The notes under the pieces: model-generated
Told to the model about the DNA's origin: nothing
Database searches by the model: none
What the model saw: only the letters and a program-made list of their open reading frames with translations
In this document: positions 35,404-46,721 of the stretch, piece by piece
Layout: every line of letters begins with the position of its first letter
How positions within the stretch are numbered: position 1 is the first letter of the stretch
Assembly: GCF_054482525.1 (NCBI RefSeq)
Contig: NZ_CM137006.1
Length of the DNA stretch: 64,000 bases
Strand: one strand, 5' to 3'
Translations under genes and position numbers: made by a program

Positions 35404-35465
35404 GCCGGATGCGGTGTTAACGCTTCATCCGAGTTGGCATGGTAAGCGAAGCGCATCAGGCAATG
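35404..35465. repeat. REP/BIME-like palindromic units between ydhP and sodB
   Basis: GCCGGATGCGGTGTTAACGCTTCATCCGAG and AAGCGAAGCGCATCAGGCAATG resemble the E. coli REP consensus (GCCGGATGCGGCG...CTTATCCGGCCTAC). Confidence 0.55.
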
Positions 35466-36193: not shown

Positions 36194-37021
36194 TTAGCGA
36201 AGTGTTTTTGGGGTCATTACCCGGCGAGCGCCAACATAGTGGCGCTGCCAGTAGTCTTCACTGAGAGAAGTGATTTGAATTTCCTGACCCGTGCGCGGTG
36301 ACTGAATAAATTTGCCGTTGCCGACATACACGCCGACATGATCGGCTGTACCGCGTCCCTGAGTACGGAAAAAGACCAGGTCGCCGTTTTTCAGTTCACT
36401 ACGTTCGATTGGCGCTGCATCGCGCAGGTGATACATTTCATTCGCCGTACGCGGAATACGAATTTTCACCAAATCTTTATAAGCGTAATAAACCAGGCCG
36501 CTGCAATCAAAACCGGTACGCGGTGAGCTGCCGCCCCAACGATATGGCTTACCAATTTGCTGCATCAGTTTATTCATTGCCACTTTCGTAGCTTTTTGCA
36601 CCTTCGCTTTGTGCGCGTCGGCAAGAGTTCCTGAAGCGGCATTTTTGACTTTCACACAATGCGATTTATAGCCCTTACGTTTGGTACACTTTTCGGTAAA
36701 GTTGGCTGAGGCCGTTTTATTGACGGCGTGTTTGCTGCGAGTTTTGGCGTTTTTAGAAGCGGTAATGGAAGATTTTTTAACGGAAGAAGCGGTTTTGCTT
36801 TTGGTCGTACTTTTACTGGCGGCTTTTTTCGCTGTTTTCTGGCTGGCTTTCTGGGTCTTTTTGGTGGTTGCCGTGCTTTTCTTTTTATCTGCTTTTTTGG
36901 TGATATGAGTGATAGCAGAACTCTCCCTGGCTTGCTTTGAAGCATGGGCCATAGGCGTTAAAGGCAGGGTGGTAAAAAGTAAAGCACAGAGCGTGATCGA
37001 AATACGGTTTATCCGCGCCAC
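36194..37021 (-). CDS. mepH: NlpC/P60 murein DD-endopeptidase MepH (YdhO) with signal peptide and K/T/S-rich linker, 275 aa
   Basis: C-terminal NlpC/P60 motif (DCSGLVYYAY ... HVGVYVGNG); start may lie a few codons inside the ORF call. Confidence 0.85.
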   Translation of the reverse strand: MARINRISITLCALLFTTLPLTPMAHASKQARESSAITHITKKADKKKSTATTKKTQKASQKTAKKAASKSTTKSKTASSVKKSSITASKNAKTRSKHAVNKTASANFTEKCTKRKGYKSHCVKVKNAASGTLADAHKAKVQKATKVAMNKLMQQIGKPYRWGGSSPRTGFDCSGLVYYAYKDLVKIRIPRTANEMYHLRDAAPIERSELKNGDLVFFRTQGRGTADHVGVYVGNGKFIQSPRTGQEIQITSLSEDYWQRHYVGARRVMTPKTLR

Positions 37022-37355
37022 TGAGCGTCCCTCTGTTAAGGCAGGTCTATCATGCCTGCGTCTGATTTACAAAACTTGATGATTCTAATGCATAGAAGAA
37101 GAGAAAGTTAATAGCTTTTATTGTTAAAAAATACGTTTCGTTGGCGAGCGCAAAAAAATGCAGCAGTGAAAGCTAAAAATGGTTATAAATACGCCAGTTT
37201 GCCGTGCGTCAGGGAAGAAACGAATATTTGAAATGCAACAAATAGAGCAAAGGGATAAAATAGCAAAAGCGTGATGAAAATGTTATTTTCCGATGCCGCA
37301 CTGACCCGCTACAATGTCAGATTACTGCCGTAAAGAAGTTTGAGGAAGCAAGACA

Positions 37356-37703
37356 ATGAGCACCACTATCGAAAAAATCCAACGCCAGATTGCTGAAAAC
37401 CCGATCCTGCTGTACATGAAAGGTTCACCGAAACTGCCGAGCTGCGGTTTCTCTGCCCAGGCAGTCCAGGCGCTTGCCGCATGTGGCGAACGTTTTGCCT
37501 ATGTTGATATTCTGCAGAATCCGGACATTCGTGCGGAACTGCCGAAATATGCTAACTGGCCGACCTTCCCGCAACTGTGGGTTGACGGCGAGCTGGTCGG
37601 CGGTTGTGATATCGTGATCGAAATGTATCAGCGTGGCGAACTGCAGCAGCTGATCAAAGAAACTGCCGCTAAATACAAGTCTGAAGAGCCGGACGCGGAA
37701 TAA
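37356..37703 (+). CDS. grxD: Monothiol glutaredoxin Grx4, 115 aa
   Basis: CGFS active-site motif (PSCGFSAQ); recognised as GrxD. Confidence 0.95.
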   Translation: MSTTIEKIQRQIAENPILLYMKGSPKLPSCGFSAQAVQALAACGERFAYVDILQNPDIRAELPKYANWPTFPQLWVDGELVGGCDIVIEMYQRGELQQLIKETAAKYKSEEPDAE

Positions 37704-37753
37704 TCCGTCCTGCAGTACTGACGGATGCGAACGGGCATCCGTCAGTTCTTTAT

Positions 37754-40700
37754 CTATCCCCAATCCAGCCCTTGTGGCGAACTTGAAAATCCCGCCTCAC
37801 GCAGCAGCGTAAACATCGGCGTTTGCCGGACCGGTAGATCATTCACTTCTGTTAGCGTAAAGCGCAGCCGTGGTTCGCGACGCAGTGCGGTGGTCAGCGC
37901 CTGGAAAATCTCTGGGGCGAGTAATTCATCTTTTTCCTGCCAGACCAGCATTTTTTTGCCGCCTTGCGCCAGATAGAGTAACAATTTGCCGCCAGAAACG
38001 ACCACCAGCGCACCCGCCCGACGCGTTGGAACCAGCGTTGCCGGATGTGCAGGCCAGGGCAGAAGATTTCCCCACACATTAGCCGGATCGTTGGCGGAGA
38101 GCGCCACTGGTGTATAGTGGCGCGTTTGCGTGGCTTGTGTCGCCAGATCGCGCAATCGGTCAATAGTCAGACGTTCAGCGAATTGCGCGCCACCCAGACC
38201 TTCTACAAAACGACCTCGCATAATTCGCCCGGAGTCTTCCATACTTCGACAAAGCGTTTGCATCGATGGAAACCCACCAGGGATATTTTCGGCTATCACC
38301 GCCTGACGACTGATGATGCCGTAGCGGTCGAGCATATTTTCCGCCAGCGCCAGCATCCTTTCGGTATCGTTTAGTGGCTCCACCTGCAATAACGACCAGC
38401 GTCCAGCAAGATTTGGTGTGTTGTAAGATACCCGCGGCGAGACGGGTTGTGCATAGACAGGACGCCCACGACGAGCCCGGTGACTGCGGCGAGTCGAGGT
38501 GCGTGCGTTGGAACTGCTGCGGGTGAGGGCGCGTAACGGTGCCCAAATGTCGCTGGTAATGAGGCCTTGCCAGACCAGCGCCCATAACGCCTCTTGCAGA
38601 GCCGAGGGATCAACCGATTCGCCGATTTTATCGCGTATCCGTTGGCTGATTTGTTGTGCAAACCAGGCTCCTCCGTCAGCCAGAACAGCGATTATCGCTT
38701 GCTGCAGCGCCGAACGATTCGCCTGATCTGCTTCGGCGGGAGTGAACGATTCTGCGGCATATTCCTGTAGATGCAGTGCCACCAGGCCGTCATCTTCACC
38801 CAGCTTTTTTTGCCCCGACCAGATAACCGCACCGGTTGCCAGTAATTCATCGAGCATTTCTGGCGAATAGTCGCGTACGCGGGCAGGCAGGATCTGGCTT
38901 TCCCAGAGTGAGGCGGGTAAACCGACTCCTGCAAGCTGTTCGATCACCCGCATGACGCCATCCACGCCCTCATAAACGCCTGGCGATGTTGAGGCAAAGA
39001 GTGCCGGGCTACCATCGGTGGCGGGTAATACGCCCTGACGTTCCAGCAGCAATCGCGCATAGGTCGTGGCCGCAACGGGACGTGTCGCTTCTCTGGCGGC
39101 TTGCAGCGAGCGCAAACGCAGACGACGAAATACTTCATCGCTCACCCAGATGTCTTGTTGCAGATTCATCACCAGCCCCTGTTCGCGCAGTTGCTGAAGT
39201 TGCTCTTCGACAATGGCAATACCGAGACTAAACTCATGAGCCAGTTGTTCAGACGTGACCAGAGCATGAGCCCGGAGATAGCGCAGAAAGAGGTCGCGAA
39301 GCGGGTAACTGACTCGGTGCAAATAAATCTCTGGCAGTGACTCTGGTAGTCGTACGCCGAGGGCATCGCGCAGCCTGGCGGCATCATCCATACAGGCAAG
39401 ACGCTCCTGCCCGCTAATCATCGTCGGGAAGATTCGTTTTACTGCAAGAAGATTTTCCAGATACGACGCAATCTCTCCACTGCTGCCTGTATGCCGTTGC
39501 GCCAGGTCTTCAACGGTCATTGGCCCCAGTTCGCGCAGCAGGTCGAACAATCCTTCTTCACCATTCGCTCTTCTGCCAGGAGCCAGTCGTTGCAACTCTT
39601 CTTCCACCTGGCGAATGACCTGCGGGTCGAGTAATTCCCCCGGATCGACCTGTCCGAGTAGATTGCGCAGTAACTCGCTGTCCAGCGACAGTACGGATGC
39701 CCGGCGCTCTGCCAGCGGGGCGTCGCTCTGGTACATAAATTCCGCGACATAGCCGAACAATAAACTGGCGGCGAAAGGCGAGGGCGTAGTGGTCGTTACA
39801 TCGGATATTTGAATTTCGCCACCGTTCAGGCGACGCATCAAACGTTCCAGCGCGGGAAGATCATAAACATCTTGCAGACATTCGCGTAGGGTTTCGAGAA
39901 TGACCGGAAAATCCGGATATCCCTGAGCGATTTCCAGCAACTGACTGGCGCGCAGCCGTTGTTGCCAGAGCGGGGTGCGATGGCCCGGCGTGCGGCCCGG
40001 CATTAATAATGCCCGCGCGGCGCATTCGCGAAAACGGGCGGCGAAAAGTGCCGAGCTGCCTACCGCCTCGCGGACAATTTGCAACAACTTTTCTGGTTCA
40101 AACAAAAAAATCGCGGCATCGGGCAATTTACCATCGGTGTCAGGAATGCGCGCAACAATGCCGTCATCACTAGCAACCATAGACGCGTCAGCGCCCCATA
40201 GTGCATGTATTCGCCCGGCAATCGCCAGCGCCCATGGTTCATGCACCCGTCTTCCATAGGGAGAGTGCAAAATAATACGCCAGTCACCAATATCATCACG
40301 GCACCGTTCGAGGACCAGATGACGACTACCCGGAACGATGCCCGTCGCGTTGCGCTGCTCGTCAATCAACCCCTGAATATTGGCGATCGTATTTTCTTCT
40401 GCCAACCACGGGGGAATAGTCCCGGAAAAGAACGCGCCATCCGCCAGTAAATGGAGAAAATCGCCGATCATCTCGCCTAATTCTGCCGGACGTCCGTTAC
40501 CTTCACCACGCCAGAAGGGAAGGCGGGCAGAACGACCTGGAGCAGGAGTCACAATCACCTGATCGCGGGTGATTTGCTGGATCCGCCATGAGGTAGCGCC
40601 GAGAGTGATAATGTCGTTCACCCGCGACTCATATACCATCTCCTCATCCAGTTCACCCACCCGCCGCGAACCGGCCTGTTCTTCACCTTCGGGTAATAAC

Positions 40701-42370
40701 ACGCTATACATGCCACGATCCGGAATGGTGCCGCCGCTGGTAACCGCCAACAATTGAGCGCCAGGTCGGGCGGTCAATATCCCGGTCTCCCGGTTCCAGA
40801 CCAGTTTGGGGCGAAAAGCAGAAAAATCGCCAGAGGGATAGCGCCCGGAAAGCATATCCAGCGTGGCGTCAAAAACACGTCTTGGCAGATCTTTCCACGG
40901 TGCGGCACGGCGTACGCGGGAGTACCATTCGTCTACCTGTAATGCATCCATCGCCGCGGCGGCAACGGTTTGCTGCGCAAGGACGTCGAGTGGATTATGC
41001 GGCGGTGTCAGGTTTTCCAGCCTGCCTGCGAACATACACTCTACAATGACTGCGGAATCGACTAAGTCACGCCTGGTTCGGGGGAAAAAAAGCCCTTTGG
41101 AGATACCACCTACCTGGTGTCCGGCACGTCCAATGCGTTGTAACCCACTGGCAACAGAAAGCGGCGTTGCCACCTGAATCACCAGATCCACCGCGCCCAT
41201 ATCAATCCCCAGTTCGAGACTGGAGGTTGCGACCACGCAGCGTAATTCACCCGATTTCAGCGCCTGTTCGGTGATTGCTCGTTGTTCTTTAGAGACGGAG
41301 CCGTGGTGTGAGCGGGCAATAAAAATGTCGCTACTTTGTACACGGTTAGAGGTTGCGCCGGAGGTCGACTCGAAATGGACCGCATCAACGGCGATAGACG
41401 GGGAACGCTGTAAGCGTGCGGCGTAAAGCTCATTCAATCGTGCCGTCAGTTTTTCCGCCAGCCCGCGTGAATTAGTAAAGACAATGGTCGAGCGATGGCG
41501 CAAAACTTCATCAAGGATACCCGTTTCAATATATGGCCAGATGGAGCCTTCTCGACCGGCATGGCTGTCTTCGCCGGTGCCGCTGGCGACCGATGAGACA
41601 TCATCCATATTGGCGACCGGTACGACAATCCGTATCTGCGGATGGCGCATTGCGGGCGGGTTGACTACCGTAACCGGGCGATCGCCACCAAGAAATGCTG
41701 CCACATCGCTGGCTGAGCGTACAGTGGCAGAAAGGCCAATTCGCTGTGCTGAGGTGTGGAGCAGCGCATCGAACCGCTCCAGACTTAACGCCAGATGCGC
41801 ACCACGTTTACTGCCCGCTACCGCGTGGACTTCATCAATAATTACCGTTTCGACGCCGCGTAGCGTTTCGCGCGCGCGGGAGGTCAGCATCAGATAGAGT
41901 GATTCGGGTGTGGTGATCAGAATATCCGGCGGATTACGGGTGAGTTTGCTGCGTTCCTGTGCAGGCGTATCGCCAGTACGGATCCCCACGCGAAGATTGA
42001 CTTCCGTTTCGCCGCGCCGCCGCCGTTCATCGGCAATACCCTGTAACGGGATCTGCAAGTTGCGCTGAACGTCGGTGCCCAGGGCTTTTATCGGTGAAAT
42101 ATAGAGGATGCGTGAGGTTTTACGCTTATGCGCCTCGCGGGTATCTTCGCCGCCTTCGCGGAAGAGCCGATCGAGGGCGTAGAGAAATGCTGCCAGCGTT
42201 TTCCCGGAGCCAGTCGGTGCAATCACCAGCGCATGTTCGCCTCGCGCCGCTACATGCCAGGTTTGCGACTGGACAGCGGTCGGCTGTTTAAAGGCGCGAA
42301 GAAACCAGTCGCGGGTCGCCGGTGAAAACACGTCCGGCAGGAGCGATGAAGGGTTTAGATTATCTGCCAT
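37754..42370 (-). CDS. lhr: Large ATP-dependent helicase Lhr (superfamily 2, DEAD/DEAH box), 1538 aa
   Basis: Walker A APTGSGKT and DEVH box near the N-terminus; 1538 aa; cotranscribed downstream of rnt. Confidence 0.93.
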   Translation of the reverse strand: MADNLNPSSLLPDVFSPATRDWFLRAFKQPTAVQSQTWHVAARGEHALVIAPTGSGKTLAAFLYALDRLFREGGEDTREAHKRKTSRILYISPIKALGTDVQRNLQIPLQGIADERRRRGETEVNLRVGIRTGDTPAQERSKLTRNPPDILITTPESLYLMLTSRARETLRGVETVIIDEVHAVAGSKRGAHLALSLERFDALLHTSAQRIGLSATVRSASDVAAFLGGDRPVTVVNPPAMRHPQIRIVVPVANMDDVSSVASGTGEDSHAGREGSIWPYIETGILDEVLRHRSTIVFTNSRGLAEKLTARLNELYAARLQRSPSIAVDAVHFESTSGATSNRVQSSDIFIARSHHGSVSKEQRAITEQALKSGELRCVVATSSLELGIDMGAVDLVIQVATPLSVASGLQRIGRAGHQVGGISKGLFFPRTRRDLVDSAVIVECMFAGRLENLTPPHNPLDVLAQQTVAAAAMDALQVDEWYSRVRRAAPWKDLPRRVFDATLDMLSGRYPSGDFSAFRPKLVWNRETGILTARPGAQLLAVTSGGTIPDRGMYSVLLPEGEEQAGSRRVGELDEEMVYESRVNDIITLGATSWRIQQITRDQVIVTPAPGRSARLPFWRGEGNGRPAELGEMIGDFLHLLADGAFFSGTIPPWLAEENTIANIQGLIDEQRNATGIVPGSRHLVLERCRDDIGDWRIILHSPYGRRVHEPWALAIAGRIHALWGADASMVASDDGIVARIPDTDGKLPDAAIFLFEPEKLLQIVREAVGSSALFAARFRECAARALLMPGRTPGHRTPLWQQRLRASQLLEIAQGYPDFPVILETLRECLQDVYDLPALERLMRRLNGGEIQISDVTTTTPSPFAASLLFGYVAEFMYQSDAPLAERRASVLSLDSELLRNLLGQVDPGELLDPQVIRQVEEELQRLAPGRRANGEEGLFDLLRELGPMTVEDLAQRHTGSSGEIASYLENLLAVKRIFPTMISGQERLACMDDAARLRDALGVRLPESLPEIYLHRVSYPLRDLFLRYLRAHALVTSEQLAHEFSLGIAIVEEQLQQLREQGLVMNLQQDIWVSDEVFRRLRLRSLQAAREATRPVAATTYARLLLERQGVLPATDGSPALFASTSPGVYEGVDGVMRVIEQLAGVGLPASLWESQILPARVRDYSPEMLDELLATGAVIWSGQKKLGEDDGLVALHLQEYAAESFTPAEADQANRSALQQAIIAVLADGGAWFAQQISQRIRDKIGESVDPSALQEALWALVWQGLITSDIWAPLRALTRSSSNARTSTRRSHRARRGRPVYAQPVSPRVSYNTPNLAGRWSLLQVEPLNDTERMLALAENMLDRYGIISRQAVIAENIPGGFPSMQTLCRSMEDSGRIMRGRFVEGLGGAQFAERLTIDRLRDLATQATQTRHYTPVALSANDPANVWGNLLPWPAHPATLVPTRRAGALVVVSGGKLLLYLAQGGKKMLVWQEKDELLAPEIFQALTTALRREPRLRFTLTEVNDLPVRQTPMFTLLREAGFSSSPQGLDWG

Positions 42371-42462
42371 TAACGCTATTCCCCGTGAATATCATGCATG
42401 ATGCGTGGAATAGCCTCACTATAGATGCCTGAATCATTGCATGTCATCAGGCATCGACTCGA

Positions 42463-43110
42463 TTACACCTCTTCGGCGGCAGGTAGCGGCCAGCCTCCCA
42501 GACGTTTCCAGCGGTTGACGATTTCACAAAACAGCACAGCAGTGCGTTCGGTGTCGTACAGCGCGGAGTGCGCCTGGGTGCTGTCGAAGTCCATGCCAGC
42601 GGTCTGGCAAGCCTTTGACAATACGGTTTGTCCGAGTGCCAGCCCGGCAAGTGCAGCAGTGTCAAAAGTGGCGAAAGGGTGGAACGGGTTACGTTTCAGT
42701 GAGGCGCGTTCTGCGGCGGCCATCATAAAGCTGTGATCGAAATTGGCGTTGTGCGCCACCATAATGGCGCGGTTACAGCCGCTCGCTTTAATGCCTTTAC
42801 GTACAACTTTAAAAATTTCGTGCAGCGCCTCGTATTCGCTGACCGCGCCGCGATCGGGATCGTTCGGGTCAATGCCGTTGAAGGCGAGGGCCTCTGGCTG
42901 CAAATTTGCGCCGACAAATGGTTCGACGTGGAAATGTAATGTGGTGTCCGGCATCAGCCAGCCTTGTTCATCCATTTTCAGGGTGATGGCGGCAATCTCA
43001 AGCAGCGCATCGGTTTTGGCGTTAAATCCGGCTGTTTCAACATCGATCACAACAGGATAAAAACCACGAAAACGGTCGCACAGACCGGTAAGTTGAGCGT
43101 TATCGGACAT
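42463..43110 (-). CDS. rnt: Ribonuclease T (DEDDh 3'-5' exoribonuclease), 215 aa
   Basis: [29 protein letters not shown]... recognised as RNase T. Confidence 0.95.
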
Positions 43111-43212
43111 CTGATTCTCTTAATACGGATAAATTGCAGCGCGCATTATGACAAATATTACTTGTCGATGCAGTAAAGATGCGGGCGCGAGGAGTTCACG
43201 CCCGGCAGGAGA

Positions 43213-43620
43213 TTAGTTGCCCAGACCGCGACCGGCGTCTTTCTCTTCGATTAACTCAATTTTGTAACCGTCCGGATCTTCCACAAACGCGATAACCGTA
43301 GTACCGCCTTTTACCGGACCCGCTTCACGGGTCACGTTACCCCCGTTTTGACGGATTTTTTCGCACGCTTCAGCGGCGTTATCAACGCTAAGCGCGATGT
43401 GACCATAAGCAGTGCCGAGTTCGTATTTATCCACGCCCCAGTTGTAGGTCAGTTCAATCACCGCTTCTTCGGTTTCCGGGCCGTAGCCAACAAACGCCAG
43501 TGAGTATTTGTATTCCGGGTTTTCGCTGGTACGCAGCAGTTTCATGCCCAGTACTTTGGTATAAAAATCGATGGAGCGTTGCAGATCGCCAACGCGCAGC
43601 ATGGTATGAAGAAGACGCAT
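43213..43620 (-). CDS. gloA: Glyoxalase I (lactoylglutathione lyase), 135 aa
   Basis: [30 protein letters not shown]... recognised as GloA. Confidence 0.95.
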
Positions 43621-43700
43621 CTTTATATCCTCAAAATGGCTAACAGATTCAAAATGTTGTTTTAGTATAGCGGCGGCTTTGCGCCGCTCGCAATGTTGGA

Positions 43701-44798
43701 TTATAGCGTCGGGTAATCAGTGTAGCCTTCCGCGCCGCCACCGTAAAAACTTTCGGCACGCTGTGGGTTAAGCTCAGCTTTGCGCTGCAAGCGGGCGACC
43801 AGATCCGGGTTCGCAATCCAGTCACGACCAAATGCCACCGCATCGATTAACCCTTTGCCGATCAGCGTTTCAGCTTTTTCTACTGTGTATGCACCTGCGC
43901 CGATAATCGGACCGTGGAAACGGGCGCGTACTTTTTCGCGGAACGCATCAGTATACGGTTCACCTCCCGCCCAATCCGGTTCTGACATATGCAGATAAGC
44001 AATGCCGCGTTTACCCAGTTGTTCAATCAGATACAGTGCATCGGCTTCTTCATTCGGGCCGTTATCTGTGTTCTGGAAAGTACCGATTGGTGAAATGCGA
44101 ATGCCAATGCGTTCGGCACCCCATTCTTCAATCCCGGCATCGACCACTTCCAGCACCAGTCGCGTGCGATTTTCCACACTGCCGCCGTACTGATCGGTAC
44201 GATGGTTTGAAGAAGGAGAAAGGAACTGATGCAGCAAATAACCGTGAGCAGAGTGGAGCTCTACCAGATCAAAACCGGCTTCACGCGCGTTAGCAATGGC
44301 CTGACGGAAATCATTGACGATACCCGGAATCTCTTCCAGTTCAAGCGCACGCGGCATGGATGTTTCAACACGGATCGCCTGACCATTTTCATCGCGCAGA
44401 GAAGTACGTGTTCCCGCGCTAAGTGCGGAAGGCGCTACCGGTGCCTGACCGCCAGGTTGCAGGCTGGCGTGAGAAATGCGTCCGGTGTGCCACAGCTGTA
44501 CGGCCATATGACCATTTTCAGCATGAACGCCAGCGGTAATTTTTTTCCATGCGGCAATTTGTTCCGGACTATGGATGCCAGGTGCACCAGCATACCCTTT
44601 TGCCTGGGCAGAAATTTGCGTGGCTTCGCTAATAATCAAACCGGCACTGGCACGTTGGCGATAGTATTCCGCCATCAACGGGGTAGGGATGTCACCCGGT
44701 TCAATACTGCGCAGACGCGTCAGCGGTGCCATAAAAATACGGTTTGCCGCCGTGATCGCGCCCACTTTCAGTGGGGAATACAGTTTTTCAGATGACAT
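43701..44798 (-). CDS. nemA: N-ethylmaleimide reductase (Old Yellow Enzyme family, FMN), 365 aa
   Basis: 365-aa OYE-family ORF downstream of nemR. Confidence 0.95.
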
Positions 44799-44834
44799 AA
44801 AGGCTCCCGGTCGTCTGGTGATAAAAAATGCCTG

Positions 44835-45434
44835 CTAAACGGCAGGCGTCGCAATAATGGTTTTTACATGTGCCAGCGCGTTTTCCAGTGGCTCGGAATT
44901 GCGCGAAATTTTGGCCTGCAGATTCGCACCCAGCCATAGTGCGTAAAGCACTTGTGCCTGTTGCAGCGGTTCGCCACAAAAGGTTAAACAATGGCTATCA
45001 CGGCCATTTTCCAGCGCCTGCGAGAGCAGAACGATCACGCCGCGAGCGCCTTTATCCATCGCGCTACGCATATCTTCTGACAGATCGCACACTTCGGCAG
45101 AGAGTTTTACTGTCAGGCAACCACTGATGGTTCCATGTTGGCAAAACTGGTTCAGTGTTTGCTGGTAATAAGCCAGTATGCGGTCGCGGTAGTTACCTTC
45201 GCCGGATTGCAGCAACTCAGTCAGTCGCTGGTGATATGTGGCGTAATGGCGCTCAAGCATGGCAACGCCAAACGCTTCTTTAGAGCGAAAGTAGTGATAG
45301 AAGGACCCTTTCGGCACTTCAGCGGTTTTTAGTAATTCGCTTAGCCCCATCCCGGTGAATCCACGTTGCAGGCAAAGTTGCTCGCCCGTCGCCAGGAGAT
45401 GTTCGCGAGTATCATGTTCGGTGTGTTTGTTCAT
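44835..45434 (-). CDS. nemR: TetR-family electrophile-sensing repressor NemR, 199 aa
   Basis: TetR N-terminal HTH; first gene of nemR-nemA-gloA. Confidence 0.93.
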   Translation of the reverse strand: MNKHTEHDTREHLLATGEQLCLQRGFTGMGLSELLKTAEVPKGSFYHYFRSKEAFGVAMLERHYATYHQRLTELLQSGEGNYRDRILAYYQQTLNQFCQHGTISGCLTVKLSAEVCDLSEDMRSAMDKGARGVIVLLSQALENGRDSHCLTFCGEPLQQAQVLYALWLGANLQAKISRNSEPLENALAHVKTIIATPAV

Positions 45435-45448
45435 GCGTTGGAGTGTAG

Positions 45449-45464
45449 TAGACCAGTCGGTCTA
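45449..45464. promoter_or_regulatory. NemR-box-like perfect palindrome TAGACCAGTCGGTCTA in the nemR / ydhL divergent region
   Basis: 16-bp perfect inverted repeat 15 bp upstream of the nemR ATG; resembles the reported NemR operator. Confidence 0.6.
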
Positions 45465-45536
45465 GTGCAAGCAAAGTTGCTACTTTGGGCATTAACAGCT
45501 TCAATAATGGTAATAATCTTATTTGAGGAGGGCGAA

Positions 45537-45776
45537 GTGGCGGAGCAATTAGAGTTCTTTCCCGTCCAGAGCCCGTGCCGGGGAATTTGCCAGTCTGACG
45601 AACGCGGGTTTTGTCGCGGCTGTTTTCGAAGCCGGGATGAGCGTTATAACTGGAATAAAATGAGCGATGGCGAAAAACAAGAGGTGCTGCGCCTTTGTCG
45701 GCAGCGATTAATGCGCAAATTACGCGCAAATAAGCCAGCGTCATCAGACGAACCGGAGCAACCATCACTCTTTTGA
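45537..45776 (+). CDS. ydhL: DUF1289-family small Cys-rich protein YdhL, 79 aa (GTG start)
   Basis: GTG at 45537 preceded by GAGGAGGG; product (M)AEQLEFFPVQSPCRGICQSDERGFCRGCFRSRDE...; the ORF call over-extends upstream into the nemR start. Confidence 0.75.
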   Translation: MAEQLEFFPVQSPCRGICQSDERGFCRGCFRSRDERYNWNKMSDGEKQEVLRLCRQRLMRKLRANKPASSDEPEQPSLF

Positions 45777-45824
45777 GCCTAATCTTGCGTATACTCCTCT
45801 CATATCTGATAAGAGGAAGCGATT

Positions 45825-46721
45825 ATGGTTCAGCGTATTACTATTGCGCCGCAAGGCCCGGAGTTTTCCCGTTTTGTGATGGGCTACTGGCGATTGATGG
45901 ACTGGAATATGTCCGCCCGCCAGCTGGTCAGTTTTATTGAAGAGCATCTGGATCTCGGCGTGACCACCGTGGACCATGCTGATATTTATGGTGGCTATCA
46001 GTGCGAAGCGGCGTTTGGCGAGGCGCTGAAACTGGCTCCTCACCTGCGTGAACGGATGGAAATCGTCAGTAAATGCGGTATCGCGACGACCGCGCGTGAA
46101 GAAAACGTCATTGGTCATTACATCACTGACCGCGATCACATCATTAAGAGCGCCGAACAGTCGCTAATTAATCTCGCGACCGATCATCTGGATCTGCTGT
46201 TAATCCACCGACCAGACCCGTTAATGGATGCCGATGAAGTGGCGGACGCGTTTAAACATCTGCATCAGAGCGGCAAAGTGCGCCATTTTGGCGTATCGAA
46301 CTTTACGCCTGCGCAATTTGCCCTGTTGCAATCACGTCTGCCGTTTACCCTTGCCACTAATCAGGTGGAAATATCCCCGGTGCATCAGCCGTTACTGCTG
46401 GATGGCACGCTCGACCAACTGCAACAACTGCGTGTTCGTCCGATGGCGTGGTCCTGCCTTGGTGGTGGTCGTCTGTTTAATGATGATTATTTCCAGCCGC
46501 TGCGTGATGAACTGGCTGTGGTGGCGGAGGAGTTAAACGCGGGCTCGATTGAACAGGTGGTTTACGCCTGGGTATTACGTTTACCGTCGCAGCCGCTGCC
46601 AATTATCGGCTCAGGTAAAATTGAGCGCGTACGGGCAGCTGTCGAAGCTGAAACACTGAAAATGACCCGTCAACAATGGTTTCGTATCCGTAAAGCGGCA
46701 TTGGGTTACGACGTACCGTAA
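45825..46721 (+). CDS. ydhF: Aldo-keto reductase YdhF, 298 aa
   Basis: 298-aa AKR-family ORF recognised as YdhF. Confidence 0.9.
   Translation: MVQRITIAPQGPEFSRFVMGYWRLMDWNMSARQLVSFIEEHLDLGVTTVDHADIYGGYQCEAAFGEALKLAPHLRERMEIVSKCGIATTAREENVIGHYITDRDHIIKSAEQSLINLATDHLDLLLIHRPDPLMDADEVADAFKHLHQSGKVRHFGVSNFTPAQFALLQSRLPFTLATNQVEISPVHQPLLLDGTLDQLQQLRVRPMAWSCLGGGRLFNDDYFQPLRDELAVVAEELNAGSIEQVVYAWVLRLPSQPLPIIGSGKIERVRAAVEAETLKMTRQQWFRIRKAALGYDVP

Follow-up and report, generated by a model that had tools for sequence, protein, structure and literature searches.

Conserved RNA hairpins in the rnt–lhr spacer of Escherichia coli and the apparent insertion of lhr at a shared terminator

What does the inverted repeat between rnt and lhr of Escherichia coli do, and how did these two genes come to stand side by side? 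The locus lies in a 64,000-nucleotide stretch of DNA (contig NZ_CM137006.1 of assembly GCF_054482525.1; the window), which is E. coli chromosome with the gene arrangement of K-12 b1652–b1653. An initial annotation, made from the letters alone, listed rnt, encoding RNase T, followed at a 92-bp gap by lhr, encoding a 1538-residue helicase; these coordinates match the open reading frame list, with both genes on the minus strand. It also placed an inverted repeat in the gap at about 42425–42460 and offered it as a possible processing or attenuation hairpin. Here, we describe this repeat (hairpin H1) as a real, conserved intercistronic RNA element of an ordinary kind, accompanied by a second hairpin (H2) at the lhr ribosome-binding site, and we trace the linkage of the two genes to an apparent insertion of lhr at a transcription terminator.

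Read as mRNA, the spacer runs from the rnt stop codon to the lhr start codon as UAA-UCGAGUC-(GAUGCCUGA-14 nt-UCAGGCAUC)-UAUAGUGAG-(GCUAUUCCaCG-18 nt-CGgGGAAUAGC)-GUUA-AUG, where the first bracket is H1 and the second is H2 (Table 1). H1 is a perfect 9-bp repeat, GATGCCTGA/TCAGGCATC, with five G:C pairs and a 14-nt loop. It begins 7 nt past the rnt stop codon and no U-tract follows its stem. The repeat of the initial annotation is real, and it ends 5 nt earlier than had been given, at 42455. The predicted RNA fold of H1 has an energy of −14.6 kcal/mol (z = −2.8 versus shuffles), and in simulations a 92-nt sequence of the same composition has a probability of about 0.017 of holding a repeat like this. 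The whole window holds 27 repeats of the H1 class versus about 4 expected, indicating that the class consists mostly of real features but is also common. H2, which had gone unnoticed, has 11-nt arms with one mismatch and an 18-nt loop. It overlaps the lhr ribosome-binding site, ends 5 nt ahead of the lhr ATG and folds at −15.4 kcal/mol. Folding of the complete spacer predicts both hairpins in the minimum-energy structure, and so does a consensus fold computed from seven spacers of the Escherichia type.

The H1 stem is kept in E. coli, E. albertii, the cryptic Escherichia clades, a lineage at 77% identity (the 77%-identity lineage) and two Citrobacter species. Among E. coli, E. albertii and the cryptic clades, 2 of 38 stem sites vary versus 9 of 32 loop sites (Fisher p = 0.018); between the window and the 77%-identity lineage the counts are 5 of 38 versus 18 of 32 (Fisher p = 0.0002). 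The named structure has 95.5% of cells paired, versus about 40% when the partners are slid. Four pairs are changed on both sides. In H1, the outermost G:C has become A:U in the 77%-identity lineage, while C. farmeri shows U:A to G:C and A:U to U.G, plus an internal G.U. In H2, A:U has changed to G:C in E. fergusonii and to G.U in the 77%-identity lineage; U.G replaces C:G in one strain of E. coli. The wobble pairs fit the sense strand only, which argues for an RNA structure and not a DNA palindrome. In E. fergusonii the H1 sequence is gone and another 9-bp hairpin occupies its position, and the hairpin behind rnt has a z between −2.8 and −3.8 in each lineage. Together, these comparisons show, on good but not overwhelming evidence, that H1 and H2 are apparently maintained by selection as sense-strand RNA structures.

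To place the spacer in its wider context, we compared loci from an RNase T search with one genome per species, of which the best 80 were kept. Nearly all of them keep the gloA–rnt pair. A convergent grxD occurs no more than 3 kb from the rnt stop codon in 70 of the 80 and no more than 272 bp from it in 66. Most of these rnt/grxD spacers contain a stem-loop between A- and T-runs, typically AAAAAAGCGACC-loop-GGTCGCTTTTTT. By its sequence, this element is a canonical bidirectional intrinsic terminator, predicted to be shared by rnt and the convergent grxD of other Enterobacterales. Among the best 80 loci, lhr follows rnt only in those from Escherichia. Look-ups of Lhr homologues recovered the order rnt–lhr–grxD in E. 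fergusonii, C. amalonaticus and C. farmeri (Lhr identity 73–75%), in the cryptic Escherichia clades and in the 77%-identity lineage; within the compared loci, the adjacency is confined to Escherichia and one Citrobacter group. The G+C content of lhr is 56.8%, versus 50.6% for the window. Since rnt and grxD converge directly elsewhere and lhr is found between them only in some lineages, the locus comparison shows lhr, on a 4.7-kb segment, as an apparent insertion that replaced the rnt/grxD terminator in Escherichia and in C. amalonaticus/farmeri. The often-quoted lhr–rnt linkage would then be a chance product of insertion at a terminator hotspot, specific to these lineages, and not a widely conserved functional pairing.

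H1 occupies the position of the ancestral terminator, directly after the rnt stop codon, and is a hairpin of similar size. The two differ in that the terminator has A- and T-tracts on both sides, whereas H1 has neither, and in that H1 is followed by lhr. The ancestral terminator served grxD too, while grxD now uses the other hairpin, between lhr and grxD (Table 1). That hairpin has a strong Term-seq 3′ end (K-12 1733707(−), window 37750) and a T-rich tail, 37747–37756, that overlaps the lhr stop codon. It has no U-tract in the lhr direction, and lhr has no U-tract terminator of its own.

Other cargo is found at the same junction: an omptin gene, an EamA gene with an amino-acid permease gene, a type VI secretion cluster, chaperone-usher fimbriae and an autotransporter (loci L017, L028, L029, L031–L034 and L062, all downstream of rnt). 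Different genera carry different cargo, which suggests that the rnt/grxD junction is a recurrent integration site in Enterobacterales. The E. fergusonii Lhr, in the same place, is 73% identical to that of E. coli and no closer to it than the Citrobacter proteins are. The sequences hint at an allelic replacement by recombination through the conserved flanks. More distant homologues have other neighbours. The Lhr gene of Phytobacter palmae (73%) has an unrelated context, and those of Pectobacterium, Pseudomonas and Xanthomonas (about 60%; L095, L096 and L097) stand behind yjbR-like and TfoX_N genes and not behind rnt. Around these ~60% homologues we observed a divergent AraC-type regulator, a YjbR-family gene and a 116-residue TfoX_N gene that ends 3–9 nt before lhr, a neighbourhood that looks like a mobile cassette. 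We also considered a TfoX_N gene remnant in the E. coli spacer and rejected it, as no similarity was found in any frame.

What, then, happens to transcripts that leave rnt? The initial annotation had suggested processing or attenuation at H1. RNase III requires a longer stem than the 9 bp of H1, so processing of that kind is unlikely. Intrinsic termination in E. coli needs a U-tract, and the H1 stem runs into UAUAGUGAGG instead; a terminator scan reported no terminator-like site anywhere in the gap (42371–42462), and H1 was rejected as an intrinsic terminator or attenuator. Databases reportedly give rnt–lhr as a single transcription unit. Published maps bear on the same point. Among the 3,746 start sites of Kim et al. 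2012, rnt has one, 28 nt upstream of its ATG; under that one laboratory's conditions, the next entry in the table is grxD and none is given for lhr (PMC3415461). Adams et al. 2021 give Term-seq lists for three growth conditions, each of about 1,000 dominant 3′ ends, and no entry in them names rnt, a weak negative given the size of the lists. With neither a U-tract nor a mapped 3′ end, transcriptional attenuation at H1 is not indicated. Co-transcription of rnt and lhr is favoured by the disappearance of the ancestral terminator, by the lack of a terminator in the gap, by the listing of a start for rnt only and by the absence of an rnt 3′ end from the lists.

H1 might still act as a weak or factor-dependent attenuator that halts part of the rnt transcripts before lhr. 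Its location speaks for this, as it sits exactly at the position of the ancestral rnt terminator, a few nucleotides after the stop codon. A hairpin is kept there in all lineages that bear lhr, and the E. fergusonii version ends in UUUU. The E. coli tail, the silent terminator scan and the Term-seq lists described above tell against it, and we regard such an attenuator as unlikely.

A separate start for lhr has to be weighed at the same place. The repeat may act as DNA, an operator-like palindrome around an internal lhr promoter, with lhr transcribed and regulated apart from rnt. The sigma-70-like match in the spacer (Table 1), whose hexamers lie within the 16–18 nt spacing range, places its −35 inside the H1 loop and its −10 immediately past the H1 3′ arm. 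A transcript beginning about 7 nt downstream would start at the foot of H2. No start site downstream of this −10 is listed in the table of Kim et al. 2012, obtained under one laboratory's conditions. A spacing of 18 nt is suboptimal. In the 77%-identity lineage the stem arms are conserved but the −35 is not (ATAACC). In a symmetric DNA site, the G.U pairs of C. farmeri H1 and of H2 in the 77%-identity lineage would read as A.C mismatches on the other strand. Evidence in favour of a separate start comes from Citrobacter. The rnt–lhr spacers there are 145–146 nt long, that of C. farmeri being 54 nt longer than that of E. coli. The C. farmeri spacer contains TACTGTATATTTGACCAGTA (L086, 2905–2924), an exact LexA box of the form TACTGTATAT-N5-CAGTA and the only such match in 97 loci; the C. 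amalonaticus spacer (L085) has the box with one base different. These boxes suggest SOS control of lhr in Citrobacter, where the equivalent spacer likely holds an independent, LexA-controlled promoter. In E. coli there is no such operator: no LexA box (CTGT-N8-ACAG type or TACTGTATAT-N5-CAGTA) with up to three mismatches was found anywhere in the window. On balance, a regulated internal promoter built on the repeat seems improbable for E. coli.

Intercistronic stem-loops such as repetitive extragenic palindromic (REP) units classically protect the upstream mRNA segment against 3′ exonucleases. H1 resembles REP units and the bacterial interspersed mosaic elements that they form (for example, at malE–malF) in forming a stem-loop within an operon, shortly after a stop codon, and in its outer stem, GCC(U/G)GA..UC(A/C)GGC, and the role that we propose for it is the classical one. 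Unlike these elements, H1 has neither the G+C-rich inner stem nor the CTTATC..GGCCTAC tail, and the window contains just one copy of it, with GATGCCTGA confined to the two H1 arms. The resemblance of the outer stem led us to build a REP covariance model from nine K-12 REPs; the K-12 RefSeq annotation is uninformative on REP status, with even the known malE–malF REPs not listed as features. The training copies score 54–63 bits and independent copies 28–41 bits. H1 scores 8.0 bits, from its outer six pairs only, and was rejected as a REP. Two weak matches to the model (16 and 15 bits) lie elsewhere in the window, at 35406–35464. Their K-12 counterpart, between sodB and ydhP, holds clear REP copies of 28–39 bits (L088, 10981–11060), and the REPs of the window strain at the sodB–ydhP site appear degraded.

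The same resemblance underlies the possibility that H1 has no function: it would be a relic, left by the decay of a REP-like unit or as an insertion scar, and conserved only through short divergence times. The outer six pairs (UGCCUGA..UCAGGCA) look like a REP outer stem, the C. amalonaticus hairpin reaches 15 bits with the model, and no mapped RNA end is associated with H1. The pattern of change speaks against a relic. Divergence is four to five times faster in the loops than in the stems, compensatory changes preserve the stem in three lineages, and E. fergusonii has replaced the sequence yet has a hairpin there. With the low score of the E. coli copy and the lack of its arm anywhere else in the window, we consider this explanation doubtful.

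H2 bears on translation. The lhr Shine–Dalgarno sequence is a weak GGGG (42384..42381), located inside H2 and 10 nt before the AUG, and H2 pairs it with the upstream CUAUUCC tract. The mean unpaired probability of the Shine–Dalgarno zone is 0.20–0.21 in E. coli-type spacers (K-12, E. albertii and a cryptic clade); the K-12 spacer, which differs from that of the window by one loop base, gives 0.21. The values are lower, 0.03–0.04, in the 77%-identity lineage and in E. fergusonii, and rise to 0.52 in a strain whose 15-bp deletion removes the left arm of H2. The predicted ensemble thus shows the Shine–Dalgarno zone as occluded by H2. That strain, E. coli CFSAN004176 (L083), lacks the equivalent of window 42403–42417, and with it the H2 5′ arm; its lhr is annotated as a broken, two-piece pseudogene. 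H2 shares with leader hairpins that sequester ribosome-binding sites, including the ROSE and FourU thermometers, a stable, conserved stem beside the start codon in which the Shine–Dalgarno region is paired. It differs from such thermometers in matching no described thermometer or riboswitch family in Rfam (E ≤ 1), and it may be a constitutive brake only. Over 36500–46000, the only Rfam match at E ≤ 1 is a chance hammerhead outside the spacer (E = 0.42).

We combined these results into one reading, to which we give about an even chance: rnt and lhr form a read-through operon created by insertion, with H1 as a segmental stability element and H2 as a limit on Lhr translation. The lhr segment would have entered at the shared rnt/grxD terminator, with loss of the terminator. 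RNA polymerase starting from the extended −10 promoter 28 nt upstream of rnt would then read on into lhr, a step that the published maps favour. H1 would most likely shield the rnt segment from 3′-to-5′ decay and so uncouple the stability and expression of rnt mRNA from the long, poorly translated lhr segment. H2 may sequester the weak Shine–Dalgarno sequence and keep Lhr translation low. One further idea concerns the short distance between H1 and the stop codon. A ribosome terminating at rnt would have to melt the H1 5′ arm, 7 nt downstream. Stem-loops this near a stop codon reportedly lower expression of the upstream gene, a finding attributed to Liang, Rudd and Deutscher in 2015.

Several points weigh against this reading. 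Both published lists, of about 3,700 start sites and about 1,000 3′ ends, are thresholded, so weak signals could be missed and weak start or stop events in the spacer may exist. An effective decay barrier at H1 might be expected to leave a 3′ end at about 42424, and the lists contain none. In the Rho list of Adams et al. 2021, the only region at lhr is antisense, in the 3′ part of the gene (K-12 1733486, window ~37971); the Term-seq data list no Rho-termination region on the lhr sense strand. Some independent transcription of lhr may occur, as the spacer holds the region's best promoter-like match. The spacer is available from only four to five independent lineages, which leaves the covariation thin, and the shuffle control should not be read as a probability. 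Finally, conservation of the H2 3′ arm could be explained simply by its being the ribosome-binding site.

A bolder proposal, which we rate as less probable than any of the alternatives above, is that control of Lhr moved to RNA once lhr had joined the rnt transcript and given up a LexA-type promoter still present in Citrobacter. H2, possibly together with H1, would then be a regulated translational switch and not a constitutive brake, opened by temperature, a small RNA or a stress-dependent factor, with Lhr made only under replication or oxidative stress. The preferred reading has simpler consequences. Expression of Lhr in E. coli probably depends both on transcripts that read through from the rnt promoter and on a ribosome-binding site that is occluded. 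If true, this would explain low Lhr levels, and rnt-proximal mutations could be polar on lhr. As the two genes, the gene order and both proteins had been characterised before, the locus has little weight for general biology; these points may be of modest use to those who study Lhr or RNase T.

Table 1. Features of the rnt–lhr locus, in window coordinates
Feature	Position	Strand	Basis
gloA intrinsic terminator, upstream of the rnt promoter	43182..43204	−	Terminator scan; Term-seq end K-12 1728279(+), window 43178
rnt promoter, extended −10 TGTCATAAT at 43153..43145, start 43138	43138..43153	−	Table of Kim et al. 2012 (PMC3415461), mapped to the window
rnt, RNase T, 215 residues	42463..43110	−	Open reading frame list; Pfam RNase_T E = 3.8e-29, residues 20–194
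rnt–lhr intercistronic spacer, 92 nt	42371..42462	−	Open reading frame ends; nearly invariant in E. coli
Hairpin H1, 5′ arm 42455..42447, 3′ arm 42432..42424	42424..42455	−	Inverted-repeat search; RNA folding
Sigma-70-like match ATGACA-18-TATAGT, candidate only	42418..42447	−	Best match (10/12) in 8-kb scan
Hairpin H2, 5′ arm GCTATTCCACG 42414..42404, 3′ arm CGGGGAATAGC 42385..42375	42375..42414	−	Inverted-repeat search; folding
lhr, 1538 residues	37754..42370	−	Open reading frame list; Pfam; RefSeq
lhr helicase core, residues 1–880: DEAD, Helicase_C, WH_Lhr, DEAD_assoc	39731..42370	−	Pfam and PDB matches
lhr C-terminal domain, residues 881–1538 and stop: WH2, WH3, WH4_Lhr; Asp-1536	37754..39730	−	Pfam; 7LHL match
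grxD intrinsic terminator, 12-bp hairpin between lhr and grxD	37717..37746	+	Terminator scan; Term-seq end
grxD, convergent to lhr	37356–37703	+	

The gene identities are secure. On the minus strand, the order is nemR–nemA–gloA, rnt, the 92-bp gap and lhr, followed by the convergent grxD, and rnt and lhr are the RefSeq names for the same DNA. The K-12 locus has the same gene order, the same 92-bp spacer (with one loop substitution) and the same flanks, nemRA–gloA and grxD–mepH–sodB; it differs in nothing of substance, the window being another strain of the same species. RNase T equals the K-12 protein at 215 of 216 translated positions, stop included; it has the RNase_T/DEDD exonuclease domain of the DEDDh family and is orthologous to K-12 rnt. 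The term 'rnt-lhr' did not occur in the papers searched. The gene lhr and its 92-nt spacing were reportedly described by Reuven et al. in 1995.

The initial annotation had called the C-terminal extension of Lhr poorly defined, a description that is out of date. Lhr in the window combines a superfamily 2 helicase core, carrying the Lhr-specific winged helix and DEAD_assoc, with a C-terminal domain of tandem winged-helix modules homologous to that of Mycobacterium smegmatis Lhr. The Pfam E-values for the core are 1.8e-31 (DEAD), 1.2e-13 (Helicase_C), 1.4e-47 (WH_Lhr) and 5.5e-62 (DEAD_assoc), and the WH2, WH3 and WH4_Lhr models match the C-terminal domain at 1e-18 to 1e-28. Against PDB entries, the protein matches 5V9X (E = 9e-294) and 7LHL (E = 0), the latter being the cryo-electron microscopy structure of M. 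smegmatis Lhr; residues 882–1478 alone match this solved structure at E = 7e-115. The C-terminal domain is reported to comprise five winged-helix modules and a β-barrel, to form a tetramer and to include an AlkZ-related subdomain (PMC8053096). The same domain of E. coli Lhr is a reported uracil-DNA glycosylase that requires Asp-1536 (PMC10953399), a residue present in the window protein. Judged by its 98.25% identity to K-12 Lhr, the window protein is presumably the known Lhr helicase/uracil-DNA glycosylase, both activities having been published for the K-12 protein (PMC10953399 and PMC8053096).

The mycobacterial Lhr proteins (5V9X and 7LHL) share this architecture across nearly their full length, whereas the operons differ. 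The mycobacterial gene stands with nei2 in a damage-inducible lhr–nei2 operon; the partner of E. coli lhr is rnt, and the E. coli spacer is without a detectable damage-response operator.

The spacer and the gene behind it differ in how constantly they are present in E. coli. Of 5426 complete E. coli genomes, 5425 match a 261-bp probe spanning the gap. The spacer, too, is found in 5425, and all but one cover at least 80% of it. At least 80% of the lhr segment, by comparison, is covered in only 4381 of the 5425 matching genomes; three low-coverage genomes that were listed each cover 8% of it. About a fifth of complete E. coli genomes appear to lack nearly all of lhr, which bears on the dispensability of the gene. 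In one such strain, Ecol_AZ162 (L082), lhr is a remnant of about 230 bp. The junction joins window ~42260 to ~37881 through a 10-nt microhomology, with loss of 37882–42259, and the strain retains the 92-bp spacer with both hairpins.

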